This document shows, in pieces, positions 15,712-31,635 of a stretch of DNA of 32,000 nucleotides. The notes under the pieces were generated by a model that saw only the letters and a list, made by a program, of their open reading frames with translations, searched no databases and was not told the origin of the DNA. Numbering within the stretch: position 1 is the first letter of the stretch; every line of letters begins with the position of its first letter. A program made the translations under genes and the position numbers. The DNA is from Promethearchaeum syntrophicum (GTDB lineage Archaea; Asgardarchaeota; Lokiarchaeia; Sigyniarchaeales; Promethearchaeaceae): the NCBI RefSeq assembly GCF_008000775.2, contig NZ_CP042905.2, forward strand, positions 4,110,001-4,142,000, written 5' to 3'.

Positions 15712-17709
15712 TTATTTATCCTCCAAGTGTTTTCTGACAAATTCATTCATATTTTTTCCAGAATGAGCTCTTTTTATTTTTCTCATCAAGATACCAGTAA
15801 TTTGGTTTATTTTATATTGTTTGTTTAAGTCCACAAACAGTTGCTCTTTTAATTTAATTTTGTTTTTCTTTAGTTGGTTCTTATTATATTCATCCAGAGC
15901 ATCAGTAAACATTTTTTCAAGTTCATTTTCTCCAATTTTTATAATATCTAAATCAGATAAAATCTGTTGGACACTTTTTTCTGAAGATTTAACTTTTTCT
16001 TTTAAGATTTTTGGAATCACACTATTATCGTATAACTCTTGTTGTGCTCCTTTAATTACTTCTTTAATATTTTCAAATGAAATTTTATTTATCTCAATCC
16101 CTTCTCTTTGGAGAGCTTTTAGGGTTTCTTCAAGAATTTTATAGACCAATTTAGGATTAAATCCATTTTCCATTAATTTCTCAAAATCTTTGAGTCGATT
16201 AGTTCTAATAAGCTGTTTTAATTGTTCAAAAGTCAATCCATATTTCTCACAATATTCGTTTTCAATTTCCCACGGTCTTTTTCCAACTTTTTCTTTCAAT
16301 GCATAGACTTTATCCATATCCATATCGATAATTGGGGTATCGGTATCAGGATAGAGGCGATCTTTGCCATGGATTACGCGTAGGAATTCAGAATTCCCAT
16401 CAAGCAATGCTCTTCTAGTTTCTTGGGGGACTCCATTTGGAGCAATCTTTATTCGTTCTATGATCTTTTTCAACCCATGTATACACCATTTTTGGGATCC
16501 AAGAACTAAAGCGTAGGCATCACCATTTTTAACGTTAAGTGCTAATTTTATTTCTTTATCTAGTTCTTTAGTCATATTTGAGAAAAAGAAATTATCTGTA
16601 GCATTTTTATGTTGTTTTCTTAGAGAGTTTAGATTCATTTCATCTGAACTAAACATATTTTTCATTAGAAGTCCAGTAATCAGGGCTGTCTTCTCAAATA
16701 TATCTTGAATAAAATCCTTTTTAGGTTGAATTTCCAAACCCAAAATCCCATCTAACTTAGGTAATCGTATACCCATTACAATAAAATCATCTGGAATTTT
16801 AGCAGCTTTAAACTTATCTGTGAGTTCAAAATACGTATGTTCTACTTCATTAATATCAAAATCTCGATCTTTTAACATTTGTGCAATTTTAATAAGCATA
16901 TCTTGGCGGAGGCATTCATGTGAACACCATTTTTGGAATAATGATAGATCTTGAACTCCTTTTAATTCTACCCTATCTCCTCCCGCTATGCTTATATTAA
17001 CATCTTGTCTTGCAGAACCAATCCCTCTTCTCCCAATACCGCTCAATCTTAAAGTTAATCCAATTATCTCAGCTAATTTTAATAAATCCTTAGGATTATC
17101 ACAATCTCGATGATCCGTAATGACTTCTACTAAAGGTATCCCCAATCGATCTAAATTATAGTATACCGTACGCCCGTAATTTTCTGTTTTAATTCGCCTA
17201 GCTGCATCTTCTTCGATTGTGAGGTTGGTAATCCCCATTTTTTTATCATTAACATAGGTATAACCATCACGAGCCACAATTGTAGTTCGTTGAAACCCGG
17301 TTGTTATAGATCCATCAAGATATTGTTTTCGAGCGAAAATAATTTCATCAACCATAGCAGACATATCAAACCAATGAGCTAATTCATAGCCTTTAAGTAT
17401 TGCTTCTTCATCTGGCCAATATGGTGGCATTTCATCTTGTTCATAAATACAATCCACATCTTCAAACGCATGATAAATACAACGATAACCCTTTTCGTAC
17501 TCTATTAACATTCCAGGATCATAATCCCCCATTTCACCTAATACAGGGCGAAAATAGCGTTCAAATCTATAATCTGGTTCAGTGGTGCTCTTTACCATTT
17601 CGGGTTTACAATTACAAAATAATTTTCTCTTTGTCTTAATCTGATGATGTACTTCAAGCCCCGCATGAAAACCGAGACTTTGATAATCTAATTCTTTTGG
17701 ATCCAGCAT
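15712..17709 (-). CDS. gatE: Glu-tRNA(Gln) amidotransferase subunit E, copy 1
   Basis: Motifs LGFHAGLEVHHQI..KLFCNC, GFQRTTIVA, IEEDAARRIK, RQDVNISI, VELKGVQ, GVPQETRR, RLYPDTDTP, with a C-terminal YqeY-like tail. ATG 17709 (MLDPKELDYQSLG) is preferred over the TTG at 17760. Confidence 0.9.
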   Translation of the reverse strand: MLDPKELDYQSLGFHAGLEVHHQIKTKRKLFCNCKPEMVKSTTEPDYRFERYFRPVLGEMGDYDPGMLIEYEKGYRCIYHAFEDVDCIYEQDEMPPYWPDEEAILKGYELAHWFDMSAMVDEIIFARKQYLDGSITTGFQRTTIVARDGYTYVNDKKMGITNLTIEEDAARRIKTENYGRTVYYNLDRLGIPLVEVITDHRDCDNPKDLLKLAEIIGLTLRLSGIGRRGIGSARQDVNISIAGGDRVELKGVQDLSLFQKWCSHECLRQDMLIKIAQMLKDRDFDINEVEHTYFELTDKFKAAKIPDDFIVMGIRLPKLDGILGLEIQPKKDFIQDIFEKTALITGLLMKNMFSSDEMNLNSLRKQHKNATDNFFFSNMTKELDKEIKLALNVKNGDAYALVLGSQKWCIHGLKKIIERIKIAPNGVPQETRRALLDGNSEFLRVIHGKDRLYPDTDTPIIDMDMDKVYALKEKVGKRPWEIENEYCEKYGLTFEQLKQLIRTNRLKDFEKLMENGFNPKLVYKILEETLKALQREGIEINKISFENIKEVIKGAQQELYDNSVIPKILKEKVKSSEKSVQQILSDLDIIKIGENELEKMFTDALDEYNKNQLKKNKIKLKEQLFVDLNKQYKINQITGILMRKIKRAHSGKNMNEFVRKHLEDK

Positions 17710-27956: not shown

Positions 27957-28229
27957 TTAGGATTTAACAATTTTCATTTTTTTCCCGCATTTTCTACAAA
28001 TAAAATCTTCATCAGTTAATACTCTTTTTTTTAATGTGCGTTTATACCCACATCTTGCAGTACAAGATAAATGGAATTTTTTTCTCTCTAATTCAAGTTT
28101 TGAAGTTTGTATATCTGATTTTTTTTTTTTACTTGTTGATTTTTTAGCTTTAGCTTTCTCAGTTGCTTTACTTTTAGTTGTTTTCTTTGATACCTTTTTT
28201 TTTGGTTTCGTAAATCGATCTAATGACAT
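27957..28229 (-). CDS. Lys-rich small protein with C-terminal Zn-ribbon
   Basis: About 90 aa. It has a highly basic tail (KPKKKVSKKTTKSKATEKAKAKKSTSKKKK) and then CTARCG...CRKCG (CxxxC...CxxC). ATG 28229 is preceded by AGGTGA; the ORF track starts at GTG 28238. Confidence 0.55.
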   Translation of the reverse strand: MSLDRFTKPKKKVSKKTTKSKATEKAKAKKSTSKKKKSDIQTSKLELERKKFHLSCTARCGYKRTLKKRVLTDEDFICRKCGKKMKIVKS

Positions 28230-28245
28230 TATTTTCACCTATTTA

Positions 28246-29511
28246 TTAAGATTCAACCTCATTATTTTGATCTTCTATTTCGTTCTGATCTTGCTCTTCT
28301 CTCTGTTCTTTCTCTTCTAACTCATCGGTTTTTTCTTTCTTTCCTTTCAGTTTCCCAACTTTACTATGAATTTTTTTAACGATTTTTAGATCTTGAATAT
28401 GAAAGGATGGTTCCTGAGTTTTTTGTGCCTTTATTTCTTTTTTTTCTATTTTGTTTTTTTCTTTCTCATCTTGTTTAATTAGAAGTTTTTTAGCTTTTTC
28501 TTTTGCAAGCTCGGATTGAAATTGTTTTTTATCTGCTTTCAATTCATGTCGCTCAGCGCGTAGCTCAGATTTTCTTTGGTATTTATCCCCTTTAATACGC
28601 CTAATCTCAGCTTTTTCAAGAGATTTTAATGCACCCAAATCTTTTTTAGCACTTTTATGAATTAAATGAACAACTCTTCGACCTTTTAGTTCAATATCAT
28701 CAGGAAATGCCTCAACAATTTCTTTATACCCCTTAACTTTGGCTCTTTCTTCTGAGGTTAGCTCGTCTTTCTCACGGAATTTATTTTCTCGATATTTTTG
28801 GGCAGGACTGCCCATATACACCCATCCACTTTCAAGTTCTTGGGATATTTGGGTCGTTGAAAGAGCCCCTAAGATAACATTATCTTGCACGATAGTTCCT
28901 GGTGCGATTACGCAATGCCCCCCAATTAAACTATTTTTACCAATTTTTACTTTCTTTATTATTAGAAATTCAGTTGTAATCATCGATGTCATGATCACCG
29001 CCCCTTGCCCTACAACAGTCCCCCTCCCTATTTCTAAGAATTCAGCATCTACCCATGCATCATAAATAGGAGTCGAAAATTTTACTTGGTTTCCGAACAC
29101 TTTAAAAGCCAATACATCGGCCCATGGAACGGGAAAATTATGACAAATCCATATTGGGTATTTTTTAATAACAGATCTTTTAATCCAAGCCCTATAATCC
29201 TTATTTTTCATTGTTTTCGGAAAAACTCCTTCTTTGGGAAAATGAAAAAAATTGACAATTCTTAGAGCTACCCACGAAAAAAACAAGGCAGACAACATGT
29301 ACAGCAAATAAACGACTAGAATTATTATAGGAAAAGTTATGAACAAAATCCAATTGAAATCCATGATAGAAATTAAGAATAATATTAAGAAGAAATCGGG
29401 AATAATTGAAAGCCAGATTAATAAGATATAAATAAATAAATACCTCGTTGCGGGAAGTGAATTAGTTGTAGTAGGCCCAACTTTTAAACTTGCGGGAATT
29501 ATGCTTGACAT
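28246..29511 (-). CDS. Membrane-anchored left-handed beta-helix (hexapeptide-repeat) protein with long Lys/Glu-rich C-terminal tail
   Basis: 421 aa with about 3 N-terminal TM helices. Hexapeptide region IGRGTVVGQGAVIM...VKIGKNSLIGGHCVIAPGTIVQDNVILGALS...WVYMGSPAQ, followed by about 170 aa of charged, coiled-coil-like sequence. Confidence 0.7.
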   Translation of the reverse strand: MSSIIPASLKVGPTTTNSLPATRYLFIYILLIWLSIIPDFFLILFLISIMDFNWILFITFPIIILVVYLLYMLSALFFSWVALRIVNFFHFPKEGVFPKTMKNKDYRAWIKRSVIKKYPIWICHNFPVPWADVLAFKVFGNQVKFSTPIYDAWVDAEFLEIGRGTVVGQGAVIMTSMITTEFLIIKKVKIGKNSLIGGHCVIAPGTIVQDNVILGALSTTQISQELESGWVYMGSPAQKYRENKFREKDELTSEERAKVKGYKEIVEAFPDDIELKGRRVVHLIHKSAKKDLGALKSLEKAEIRRIKGDKYQRKSELRAERHELKADKKQFQSELAKEKAKKLLIKQDEKEKNKIEKKEIKAQKTQEPSFHIQDLKIVKKIHSKVGKLKGKKEKTDELEEKEQREEQDQNEIEDQNNEVES

Positions 29512-29540
29512 TATATTGTACCTTGTATTTTTTTCTTCTA

Positions 29541-30419
29541 TTAATTATCTTGAGTTATCCTATAGGCTTTTTTCTTGTTTTTAGTTTCATAAACCAGATC
29601 TTTCTTATCATCTGGAATTTGTATCATTTTCAAATAACGTTTTGTAGATAACCTACTGATAGGTAATCCAAAATATTTCGCAAATCCCTTAATTTTAGAA
29701 AATTTGATCACACCACTCATCGGGAGAAATTCTGTGTATGGTTCCATATAAGTCCCAGGGGCAATAGCATTATGGGCACCAACAACCGAGTTATCCCCAA
29801 GATACACCTTTTTCAGTGTGATTGCCCCATATTTACCCTCTACAGTATGACTAGTAACACCAGAGGCTTGCCCGATATACACATTTTTCCCTGTTTCTAT
29901 ATATTCTTTACAAAAAACATGATCCTCCATTGTTGTTCCTTTTCCAATTTTACAATCTCCTACGAAATTTAATGCCCAATTCATTAACCAAGGAAAAGCA
30001 CTCTTTACAATTGACCAAACTACAATTCTAAGAATAACTCCTCGTAGATGATATGCGTTAACTACACGAGCTTCTTCCTTTCCAATTCCTTTTGCAGACA
30101 CTAATTCTTTCTTGGGAGAAATTAAATTGATTAATGAGATTGAAATTTTACCTAGGATTGCTAAAGAGAATATACGAAAAACATATAAAAATATGGCAAA
30201 TAATGGTGTTAAAACTGAAATTAGAACATATTTCCAACTCGTGAATATTAAAAAGAAATCAAGAAATATGTGTTGTAAAGGAAAAATGCAGATCTTGTAA
30301 TAATAATAACCCATAATTATCGAAGGAACCCAAGAATACCCCCACACAAATAAAATAACAAAAATATACTTCTCCATTTCAATTTTTGCACTTGGAGGAA
30401 TACGTGGATCTCTCTTCAT
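29541..30419 (-). CDS. Membrane-anchored left-handed beta-helix (hexapeptide-repeat) protein, paralogue-like neighbour
   Basis: 292 aa with about 4 N-terminal TM helices. Hexapeptide region VGDCKIGKGTTMEDHVF...VYIGQASGVTSHTV...VYLGDNSVVGAHNAIAPGTYM. Same architecture as 28246..29511, and only a 29-nt gap. Confidence 0.7.
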   Translation of the reverse strand: MKRDPRIPPSAKIEMEKYIFVILFVWGYSWVPSIIMGYYYYKICIFPLQHIFLDFFLIFTSWKYVLISVLTPLFAIFLYVFRIFSLAILGKISISLINLISPKKELVSAKGIGKEEARVVNAYHLRGVILRIVVWSIVKSAFPWLMNWALNFVGDCKIGKGTTMEDHVFCKEYIETGKNVYIGQASGVTSHTVEGKYGAITLKKVYLGDNSVVGAHNAIAPGTYMEPYTEFLPMSGVIKFSKIKGFAKYFGLPISRLSTKRYLKMIQIPDDKKDLVYETKNKKKAYRITQDN

Positions 30420-30479
30420 TATGCACTTAAAATAAACTAAAAATAAAAATCATTGTTAATGATTTTTTTTAATGATTTT

Positions 30480-30923
30480 TTAATCTGAAACCGCTTTTCG
30501 TTTTGAAAAGAGGGTCTTCAACTCATCCATTATTGATCCACGTAGGGATACAGGCCCTGCTGGAGCCCCCCCTTTTGGAGGAGGTGCTCTTCCAGGAGGT
30601 GGTGGTGGTGCTCCAGGAGGTGGTGACCCAGGTGGCGGTGGTGGTGCTCCGGGACCAGATGCTACTGCTGGAACAGCTAAATTTGCTCCTGCTGCAGCGG
30701 CAACTCTAGATTCTACTTGCACTATTCGACCCTCCATTGCTTTTAATCGACCATCGAGACCATTAATTTGATTTGATAGTACTTGGATACTTTGATCTAC
30801 CATCTCCGGAATCCTTAACGTGATTGTCATAATCTTCTCGATTACATCGCCCAATCCTTCGACTCGCTCTTTCAATGGTGCTTCACTGTAGCTATTCATT
30901 ACGGAAAAGAATTCTTCAGCCAT
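30480..30923 (-). CDS. Coiled-coil / polyproline / WH2-like C-terminal motif protein
   Basis: 147 aa from ATG 30923 (the ORF track uses TTG 30968). No TM or signal peptide. Coiled-coil-like QSIQVLSNQINGLDGRLKAMEGRIVQVESRV, then GPGAPPPPPGSPPPGAPPPPPGRAPPPKGGAPAGP, then SLRGSIMDELKTLFSKRKAV. Confidence 0.65.
   Translation of the reverse strand: MAEEFFSVMNSYSEAPLKERVEGLGDVIEKIMTITLRIPEMVDQSIQVLSNQINGLDGRLKAMEGRIVQVESRVAAAAGANLAVPAVASGPGAPPPPPGSPPPGAPPPPPGRAPPPKGGAPAGPVSLRGSIMDELKTLFSKRKAVSD
30555..30656 (-). repeat. Low-complexity GC-rich Pro/Gly codon tract
   Basis: The + strand shows reiterated ggtggtggtgctccRgga units. This is a local GC spike caused by CCN/GGN codons. Confidence 0.8.
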
Positions 30924-31017
30924 TTTAATTCGACCTAAAAATATTAAATTCAATTTACTGGTAAGCAAATTGATTATTATGTAGTACTATTGGTAAAACG
31001 ATCTTAAATAATTTTAT

Positions 31018-31635
31018 TTAAAACTCCAGAAATCCAGTGTCACCCAAAATTTCCTCAATTTTTGCCCGTCTTTTGGGTTTTTCACTAACCTTACTTTCCC
31101 CTTCATCGTATGGATTATCTTCGTTTTCTTCATATATGTTTTCGAGAGTGGCATCTTCAATAAGACCAGAATCTAGTTGTTCTTGGAGTCTTTTTCCATT
31201 TTCAACGTATTTGGCTGCAGTCGCTTTCCACATCTCTGCTTGTTCCAAATCTTTTGGGTCTTTATTTTTTTGATATTCTTCAAGAGCTTTTGTGGAATTA
31301 ACATTTGCATTATCAGCTAAAAATGAATAGACTAAGGTTAATTCAGTAAATTGTTTCTTTTCCCAAAGTTTTTCTTCACGAGATGTGAGTCTAGCATATT
31401 CTTGGTCTTTATAATATATATCAATGAAATCTCCAAATGCATCAACGGGTTCTGTGAGGTCATTCTTGGAAACTTTCTGAGATACACCACAATGTCCGCA
31501 AATTACTTCGACATCTTCTTCTTTTGAAGTTACTTTCGCTTTGACTGTCTTGTGTCCGCATTTTGGGCAGGTAAAGATCTTGGGAAGTGATCTTACTCTT
31601 CTATAAACAATTTTTTTTCTTTTGCGTCGACCCAC
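31018..31635 (-). CDS. elf1: Elf1-type transcription elongation factor zinc-ribbon protein with long C-terminal extension
   Basis: GTG start. MGRRKRKK basic N-terminus, then FTCPKCGH...VICGHCG...LTEPVDAFGDFIDIYY, matching the Elf1 pattern (basic tail, C4 ribbon, L-x-E/x-P-I/V-D). About 130 extra C-terminal residues are acidic and helical. Confidence 0.75.
   Translation of the reverse strand: MGRRKRKKIVYRRVRSLPKIFTCPKCGHKTVKAKVTSKEEDVEVICGHCGVSQKVSKNDLTEPVDAFGDFIDIYYKDQEYARLTSREEKLWEKKQFTELTLVYSFLADNANVNSTKALEEYQKNKDPKDLEQAEMWKATAAKYVENGKRLQEQLDSGLIEDATLENIYEENEDNPYDEGESKVSEKPKRRAKIEEILGDTGFLEF

Follow-up and report, generated by a model that had tools for sequence, protein, structure and literature searches.

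On the minus strand of the window, by which we mean the whole 32,000-nucleotide (nt) stretch analysed here (positions 4,110,001-4,142,000 of the closed, one-contig, 4.32 Mb genome of the Lokiarchaeial (Asgard) archaeon Promethearchaeum syntrophicum), lie four closely spaced genes, referred to as A, B, C and D in minus-strand order. The explanation favoured by our computational analysis, at a probability of roughly 0.6, is that B and C encode a hetero-oligomeric membrane acyltransferase composed of split modules similar to those of the Pls/PosA family of non-ribosomal peptide synthetases, and that genes A and D are outside this unit. The functional core would be the two-gene unit formed by gene B (29541-30419, 292 amino acids (aa)), a stand-alone, His-bearing (type-1) module that is presumed to be the catalytic subunit, and gene C (28246-29511, 421 aa), a module without that His (type-2/3) that carries a charged helical tail. 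All features of genes A to D given below are located on the minus strand.

The initial annotation of this DNA had likened the two middle proteins to the modules, made of transmembrane (TM) helices and a left-handed beta-helix (LbH), that are repeated in the C-terminal polymerising region of Pls/PosA-type synthetases, and profile, tblastn and BLAST searches all confirmed the likeness. The top NCBIfam match of both B and C was TIGR02353, the Pls/PosA model, with expectation (E) values of 5.2e-15 for C and 5.8e-6 for B. Residues 25-262 of C aligned to model positions 19-235, so that both the membrane hairpin and the beta-helix were covered, and ordinary acetyltransferase models aligned to residues ~133-265 of C only. 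When residues 1-262 of C were used as a tblastn query against 72,556 records of a plasmid collection, two genes gave the best matches, one from A. baumannii for an "amino acid adenylation domain-containing protein" and one from Streptomyces with the annotation "Pls/PosA family non-ribosomal peptide synthetase"; both alignments spanned residues 106-262 of the query. All three modules of the 1378-aa Streptomyces Pls were matched by C in BLAST (E 1e-11, 1.5e-5 and 5e-3).

Homology of B and C to Pls/PosA is therefore well supported at the level of the module. Membership of the full Pls/PosA family is not supported, because each protein contains a single module, neither contains an adenylation or thiolation domain, and the profile scores are far below the family cut-off. 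A TIGR02353 match under the family cut-off was also seen in Haloferax volcanii (E up to 1e-10), and stand-alone relatives may exist in haloarchaea, which would offer a tractable host.

Structure prediction and hydropathy analysis indicated that B and C each contain one module, which is predicted to consist of a membrane hairpin of two long helices followed by a pair of short helices and an LbH. For C, AlphaFold2 gave a model with a predicted local distance difference test score (pLDDT) above 85 across residues 20-245 that displayed, in this order, helices at residues 22-49 and 55-89, a short strand, helices at 104-124 and 131-138, and the LbH (residues ~140-245; 28777..29094), which was also recognised by Foldseek. 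The membrane hairpin of C (residues 22-89; 29245..29448; pLDDT 83-95) coincided with hydropathy, by which hydrophobic N-terminal segments were found in B (residues 18-101) and C but not in the other two proteins. The "3-4 N-terminal TM helices" described previously were thus borne out as a hydrophobic N-terminus in both proteins but not in number, since the model of C contains two long helices; two long helices per module, probably bent, are the better reading. Because nine Lys/Arg residues are located in the stretch of C after helix 2, the positive-inside rule would place the LbH and the tail of C on the cytoplasmic side of the membrane.

The hexapeptide repeats noticed earlier in both proteins were above the Pfam Hexapep cut-off (27 bits) in C (35.3 bits) and below it in B (20.9 bits). 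Both the repeats and the fold of the hexapeptide LbH superfamily are present, the fold in C being indicated by the AlphaFold2 model and by Foldseek, which matched C to maltose/galactoside O-acetyltransferases (TM-score 0.56 on the target, root-mean-square deviation about 3 Å) and to gamma-carbonic-anhydrase-like trimers. Sequence and fold searches of the PDB found no solved Pls membrane domain and returned soluble LbH trimers and gamma-carbonic-anhydrase-like subunits of complex I. The bactofilin/DUF583 profile, which had been proposed as a control, was matched by neither B nor C in Pfam at E up to 1. The earlier concern that the LbH domains would hit ordinary O-acetyltransferases and that the TM helices would lack support came true in its first half only: sugar O-acetyltransferases and gamma-carbonic-anhydrase-like proteins were matched, yet the membrane helices were supported. 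An AlphaFold/RoseTTAFold model of PosA contains three modules in an approximate threefold packing like that of trimeric sugar-nucleotide acyltransferases (PMC10522769), and the module plan of the C model agrees with it.

Conservation was examined in 14 genomes from seven genera of the family for the B-C pair, in 41 genomes of the order for D and in 301 Asgard genomes of the phylum for A. An orthologue of B was present in all 14 family genomes and was located directly upstream of C in 13 of them (six of the seven genera), which represents every case in which both genes are on one contig; in the exception, genus g73, B and C are on different contigs and C is at a contig end. The B-C spacers in the four genomes included in the spacer comparison were 1-44 nt long and contained no T-runs, and in this genus the spacer carries a Shine-Dalgarno (SD)-like AAGGT before the ATG of C. 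Other Asgard archaea encode natural fusions (P0037, P0043 and P0049, ~608-636 aa) in which the B-type module precedes the C-type module, and a 524-aa protein of a sister family (G008) contains the two in reverse order. Several other Asgard lineages contain sets of three modules, either as three consecutive modules (1+1+1) or as a fusion with a third gene (2+1). Because of the conserved adjacency, the SD-like spacing and the natural fusions, the comparison clearly points to B and C functioning together.

In a maximum-likelihood tree of the modules, a type-1 clade, which includes B, the N-terminal modules of the fusions and the first genes of the triplets, was separated from the clades of C, the C-terminal modules of the fusions and the third modules with a support of 100/96. 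When Pls modules were included in the tree, the Asgard types could not be assigned to particular Pls modules.

The genome encodes further TM/LbH genes, namely another pair in tandem and a type-1 gene that stands alone. The second pair (L002:316-2990; G000:C1:2059565-2062239) consists of genes that overlap by 4 nt and encode proteins of 259 aa and 282 aa, both on long branches in the tree, and is preceded by a gene for a 272-aa coiled-coil protein with a terminal CxxC...CxxC zinc ribbon, echoing the locus in the window. In Lokiarchaeum ossiferum the pair is tandemly duplicated (B-C-B'-C'; L014:1887-6173), and the 68-nt spacer between the pairs is rich in T-runs, so each pair is seemingly its own unit.

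The same data bear on the possibility that B and C are two independent membrane-anchored O-acetyltransferases, each a homotrimer acting on lipid-linked sugars or lipids, which are neighbours only as the result of a tandem duplication. The LbH domains did match maltose/galactoside, WcaF/WbbJ-type and heptaprenylglyceryl-phosphate O-acetyltransferase models, a glycosyltransferase gene adjoins the locus in Harpocratesius, and the TM/LbH genes are expanded in the sister family, where one genome can contain as many as 17 matches, as would be expected of surface-modifying enzymes. Old and well-separated module clades nevertheless remain paired, or fused in both orders, and the similarity to Pls is not confined to the LbH but includes the hairpin and the helices before the LbH; in addition, a homotrimer of C would be devoid of the His that characterises type-1 modules. 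Independent enzymes are thus a conceivable but unlikely explanation of the pair, and the joint, hetero-oligomeric acyltransferase is preferred.

A marked asymmetry between the two module types was observed at a single alignment column. All type-1 modules in the alignment have a His in an (S/T)H motif, which in B is His191 (motif TSH; codon at 29847..29849), a candidate catalytic base, and in the alignment of the fusions the His of the N-terminal module (H199) is invariant. The same column is occupied by Ser, Ala or Phe in C-type and third-type modules, and by Ser176 in C (28984-28986). An exception is own_L002a, a His-bearing, long-branch paralogue outside the type-1 clade. In the Streptomyces Pls, the one Pls examined, this column contains His in module C3 only, Tyr in C1 and Ala in C2. 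A catalytic role of His191 is likely, but its position relative to the catalytic His115 of E. coli LacA varied between alignments.

LbH acyltransferases act as trimers. On the basis of this property, of the pseudo-trimeric Pls/PosA model and of the Asgard three-module sets with one His-bearing and two non-His modules, B and C are proposed to form a hetero-oligomer, most likely of one B with two C, which is the simplest stoichiometry because only two genes are found here. Such a complex would have a six-helix membrane bundle and a single active site centred on His191 of B. The acyl group would be transferred from a cytoplasmic thioester donor, either acyl-coenzyme A or carrier-bound, to an acceptor in or crossing the membrane; candidate acceptors include lipids, lipid-linked glycans and growing polymers. 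Elsewhere among Asgard archaea, loci with related modules adjoin lipid-related genes as well as genes for an alcohol dehydrogenase, a hydrolase and a CxxCxxCC protein.

The initial annotation had also described the modules as standing alone, without adenylation or thiolation domains, and this was upheld by the Pfam and NCBIfam scans and by inspection of the neighbouring open reading frames (ORFs). No AMP-binding match was found in B or C in either database, and no adenylation-like gene was seen beside the three TM/LbH loci of the genome when the N-termini of the ORFs were inspected by eye. Likewise, no thiolation domain was detected in or beside B-C; the only PF00550 (phosphopantetheine-binding) match in the genome is an 80-aa ORF at 735.6 kb, within a sugar-modification cluster 3.4 Mb from B-C. 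Judging from N-termini, this cluster of surface-sugar type (G000:C1:723463-737212) includes aminotransferase-, soluble LbH acetyltransferase-, acid-activating ligase- and WecA/MraY-like ORFs.

These results bear on the idea that B-C is a true polymerase/exporter like the C-terminal domain of Pls, in which carrier- or CoA-bound monomers would be supplied in trans and a polyamide or similar polymer would be threaded out through the helix bundle. Such an activity would be in keeping with the module homology and architecture common with Pls/PosA, with the one-His-in-three pattern that was also found in the Streptomyces Pls, and with the presence at 734-736 kb of the free-standing carrier next to a 503-aa ORF that resembles an acid-activating ligase by eye. 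In Pls the thiolation and membrane domains belong to one covalent polypeptide chain, whereas here the sole carrier protein is encoded 3.4 Mb away in the sugar-modification cluster and none of the three TM/LbH loci has an adenylation or thiolation gene beside it; moreover, the Pls modules were not interleaved with the Asgard types in the tree. As no adenylation or carrier gene is nearby, a Pls-like polymerase fed in trans is possible but unsupported, and we consider it decidedly unlikely in comparison with a membrane acyltransferase composed of B and C.

Several observations weigh against that hetero-oligomeric acyltransferase of split Pls-like modules. The TIGR02353 bit scores were 54.8 for C and 24.9 for B, to be read against a family cut-off of 423, and some modules matched TIGR02353 no better than they matched the model of a soluble heptaprenylglyceryl-phosphate O-acetyltransferase (NF058585). 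The LbH of B is strongly diverged and had no significant match in the sequence search of the PDB, and the AlphaFold2 model of a natural fusion, although it displayed the same plan per module, was of low confidence (pLDDT 61). This locus contains two genes only, compared with three modules in most other Asgard sets, and in the tree the Pls modules, with long branches of biased composition, formed a group of their own rather than joining the Asgard modules. The one-His-in-three pattern common with Pls may be convergent, or an artefact of long branches or composition, and His191 of B was aligned with the column of LacA His115 in one MAFFT run and three residues from it in another. No donor-activating enzyme was seen near the three TM/LbH loci among the ORF N-termini inspected by eye, and that B binds C, and in which ratio, is something we infer. 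In addition, D is located beside TM/LbH genes, in convergent orientation, in several other genera, and a functional tie between them is possible.

The tail of C (residues 246-421; 28249..28776), as defined by the AlphaFold2 model and by composition, contains 27% Lys+Arg and 23% Glu+Asp and includes one modelled helix of 87 residues (278-364). Its description as a Lys/Glu-rich coiled-coil tail of ~170 aa was accurate with respect to composition and length (176 residues), but the coiled coil is uncertain, because the best heptad frame was hydrophobic at just 8 of 25 a/d positions. A coiled coil was examined as a candidate structure and set aside for want of a clear heptad pattern; a lone charged helix is at least as likely. 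The tail is restricted to orthologues in genera g1, g2 and g4 (ORFs of 403-443 aa), and the orthologues of C in g3, g71, g72 and g73 are tail-less proteins of 260-313 aa. It is a lineage-specific, probably cytoplasmic appendage. Two other genera have a charged N-terminal extension on B instead, which indicates that such appendages are variable.

Gene D (27957-28229, 90 aa) encodes a protein with a conserved MSLD N-terminus, followed by a disordered stretch rich in Lys and, at the C-terminal end, a zinc ribbon of the form CX3C...CX2C. The start was placed at the ATG at 28229 rather than at the GTG at 28238, because orthologues begin with MSLD. The previous designation of D as a Lys-rich Zn-ribbon protein was correct: it contains 33 Lys/Arg among 90 residues and two Cys pairs (C56, C60, C78 and C81), of which C60, C78 and C81 are invariant in eight orthologues. 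Profile matches of D were weak, the ribbon of TFE-alpha being matched at E 1e-3 and the N-terminal ribbon of AccD at E 0.02.

D was found in 36 of the 41 genomes of the order. In this genus only, C and D are 16-17 nt apart and a conserved ATAGGTGA precedes the ATG of D; in g2 and g4 the gap measures 97-187 nt and contains T-runs. Co-transcription of C and D is probable in this genus, and from the distribution and spacing of the genes D is apparently not an obligate partner of B-C, its tight coupling to C being a property of this genus alone. Outside this lineage the usual neighbours of D are a gene of ~410 aa whose N-terminal motif resembles S-adenosylmethionine synthetase by eye, and two zinc-finger proteins of ~320-340 aa with an HRLPENH motif (L033:12565-14269; L034:516-2193; L036:9169-11069; L037:3083-4716).

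Gene A (30480-30923) encodes 147 aa counted from the ATG. An upstream TTG at 30968 is an unlikely start, because orthologues begin with MAEEFF. The N-terminal half of the protein is helical; a coiled-coil-like stretch and three proline runs are also present, and the motif at the C-terminus, SLRGSIMDELKTLFSKRK, is conserved. The A family is represented in 201 of the 301 Asgard genomes, in most cases at a distance from TM/LbH genes. Throughout the phylum its N-terminal domain is helical, its linker is rich in Pro/Ala and its C-terminal motif has an invariant Glu-Leu (consensus [LM]x[GSD]ELKx[LA][FL]xxR[KR]). True proline runs were seen in this order only, Pro/Ala-rich linkers taking their place elsewhere. 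The "WH2-like" label formerly given to A was not retained, as A had no match to WH2 (PF02205) in Pfam at E up to 1 and contains no canonical LKK[TV] at WH2 spacing. A profile search of the PDB with A returned generic coiled coils only.

The A-B spacer (30420..30479) contains a T5AT5 run, which could serve as an archaeal termination signal, and, ahead of B, a promoter-like stretch rich in A/T. Oligo-T runs follow the stop codon of A in all four genomes compared, in which the A-B spacers are 50-151 nt long. The stability of a hairpin in the spacer did not exceed that of shuffled sequences (z -0.32), and a scan for bacterial promoters and terminators, which is not built for archaeal signals, found no above-chance signal on the gene strand. 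Because T-runs follow the stop codon of A and because of the length of the A-B spacer, A probably has its own transcript and would be an adjacent, separate unit belonging to an independent, Asgard-wide family.

A different context of A is conserved in the sister family f2 and in genus g3: a gene for a 206-aa coiled-coil protein is followed by A, by a gene for a ~590-aa protein and by an Elf1 gene on the opposite strand. The 206-aa protein begins with MPI.T.ED and is conserved in f2 and in genus g3 (L021:5281-8373; L019; L020; L022); in this genome its gene (16853-17473) is ~200 kb from gene A. The ~590-aa orphan beside A in the sister family had no Pfam match.

The Pro-rich tract and the LRG..M.ELK.LF-type helix of A recur in three other proteins of the genome: a 383-aa small GTPase of the Arf/RagA family (G000:C1:2084517-2085668, minus strand; Pfam Arf E 8e-24), a 697-aa protein anchored in the membrane by its C-terminus (1209810-1211903, plus strand) and a 251-aa protein with GPPSGPP repeats that ends in LKELERLKKIM (2657157-2657912, minus strand). 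On account of this recurrence the motif behaves as a portable binding module.

The gaps between the four genes, 60, 29 and 16 nt in the order A-B-C-D, were as first described from the ORF list and the sequence. Upstream of A on the same strand is an Elf1 homologue (31018-31635, minus strand; Pfam E 7e-18) with an acidic helical C-terminal extension of ~130 aa; an Elf1 homologue is found near gene A in both Lokiarchaeial families, in an orientation that differs between them. Downstream of the string is gatE-gatD, which is convergent with it. Homologues of the proteins of the locus carry the labels Promethearchaeota, Lokiarchaeum ossiferum and Harpocratesius. The order Elf1-A-B-C-D is kept in L. 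ossiferum, with B-C tandemly duplicated, and in Harpocratesius, and by coordinates the A-B-C-D string is present in further genomes, in three genera of one family in total. The pairs in g3, g71 and g72 are located beside unrelated housekeeping genes, with no A or D nearby.

The proposal that the four genes form one system was not sustained by this comparison: the B-C pair is kept across the family, but the whole string is limited to three genera, B-C occurs elsewhere without A or D, and A has another conserved context. The four-gene string is best described, on gene order, as a lineage-specific juxtaposition in three genera and apparently not a conserved system. The genera that bear the C tail are the same three that bear the full string; this co-occurrence is one evolutionary event and provides no independent evidence.

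A single membrane machine composed of all four products, in which B-C is docked via the tail of C to D and A and A might recruit profilin-actin by means of its proline runs and a WH2-like helix at its C-terminus, was weighed against this background. The gene order from Elf1 to D is kept in three genera and the tail of C occurs in exactly those genera, but the tail and the string are a single phylogenetic event, and the B-C pairs of g3, g71 and g72 have neither A nor D nearby. The paralogous B/C-like pair is preceded by a coiled-coil protein ending in a zinc ribbon, and the module of A that combines a Pro-rich tract with the LRG..M.ELK.LF helix recurs in the Arf-like GTPase, the tail-anchored protein and the 251-aa protein. 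On the other hand, A is mostly remote from TM/LbH genes in the 201 of 301 genomes that contain it and has other conserved context, T-runs follow its stop codon in all compared genomes, its proline runs are confined to this order, and neither a Pfam WH2 match nor a canonical LKK[TV] at WH2 spacing was found. A further point in its favour is that actin nucleation machineries have been stated to be not yet found in Asgard archaea (PMC9433394). We regard a four-gene machine as very improbable. A still more elaborate version, in which the split modules and their three-module Asgard relatives form a Pls-like pseudo-trimeric synthase-translocase that would make and export a polymer or an acylated membrane component and that the tail, D and A couple to actin in the Prometheoarchaeum/Lokiarchaeum lineage, would be highly speculative and has only a slight chance of being correct.

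In conclusion, the preferred explanation is a membrane acyltransferase in which B and C act as split Pls-like modules, and what this locus adds is a tail-bearing subtype of C together with a mostly negative test of the flanking genes. A search of the literature and the PDB found no experimental structure, mechanism or catalytic residue for the Pls/PosA membrane domain (PMC10522769) and no cryo-electron microscopy paper on Pls. A Pls/PosA membrane domain that is naturally split into small subunits, of which one type bears the His, would be easier to express, mutate and mix singly. The Asgard TM/LbH modules occur in many copies and probably represent unexplored membrane or envelope biochemistry; no description of them was found in the literature, where we encountered no paper that ties Asgard archaea to membrane hexapeptide proteins or that names TIGR02353. 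The locus also provides a caution for the use of synteny, in that a neat four-gene string in three genera can be a lineage-specific juxtaposition and not a system.

Among known systems, the eukaryotic polyproline and WH2 modules of the WASP/VASP/formin type resemble A in having, in this order, an oligomerising helix, proline runs and a short amphipathic helix whose end is basic. They differ in that A has no Pfam WH2 domain, the spacing of its motif is not that of LLxxIxxGxxLKK[VT], and its proline runs are not conserved outside the order.

The soluble trimeric LbH acyltransferases, such as E. coli LacA, the WcaF/WbbJ type and the B. subtilis-type enzymes described by NF058585, have the LbH fold and hexapeptide repeats in common with B and C, and the His of B is at, or within three residues of, the position of the catalytic His115 of LacA. 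Whereas these enzymes form homotrimers whose three active sites are equal, B and C possess a membrane hairpin and are two diverged types that are kept paired, and C is without the His.

The differences from Pls/PosA are that its three modules are in tandem in one polypeptide, whereas here they are separate proteins, with two-module fusions elsewhere in Asgard archaea; that its adenylation and thiolation domains have no counterpart in or beside B-C; and that the present locus is archaeal, has only two genes and encodes a C with a 176-residue Lys/Glu tail. The C1-C2-C3 region of Pls (epsilon-poly-L-lysine synthetase) and PosA (delta-poly-L-ornithine synthetase) (TIGR02353) and the proteins described here nevertheless have in common the composition of each module, namely two long membrane helices, two further helices and a five-turn LbH, and in the sole Pls examined one of the three modules has a His at the position of the His in B.

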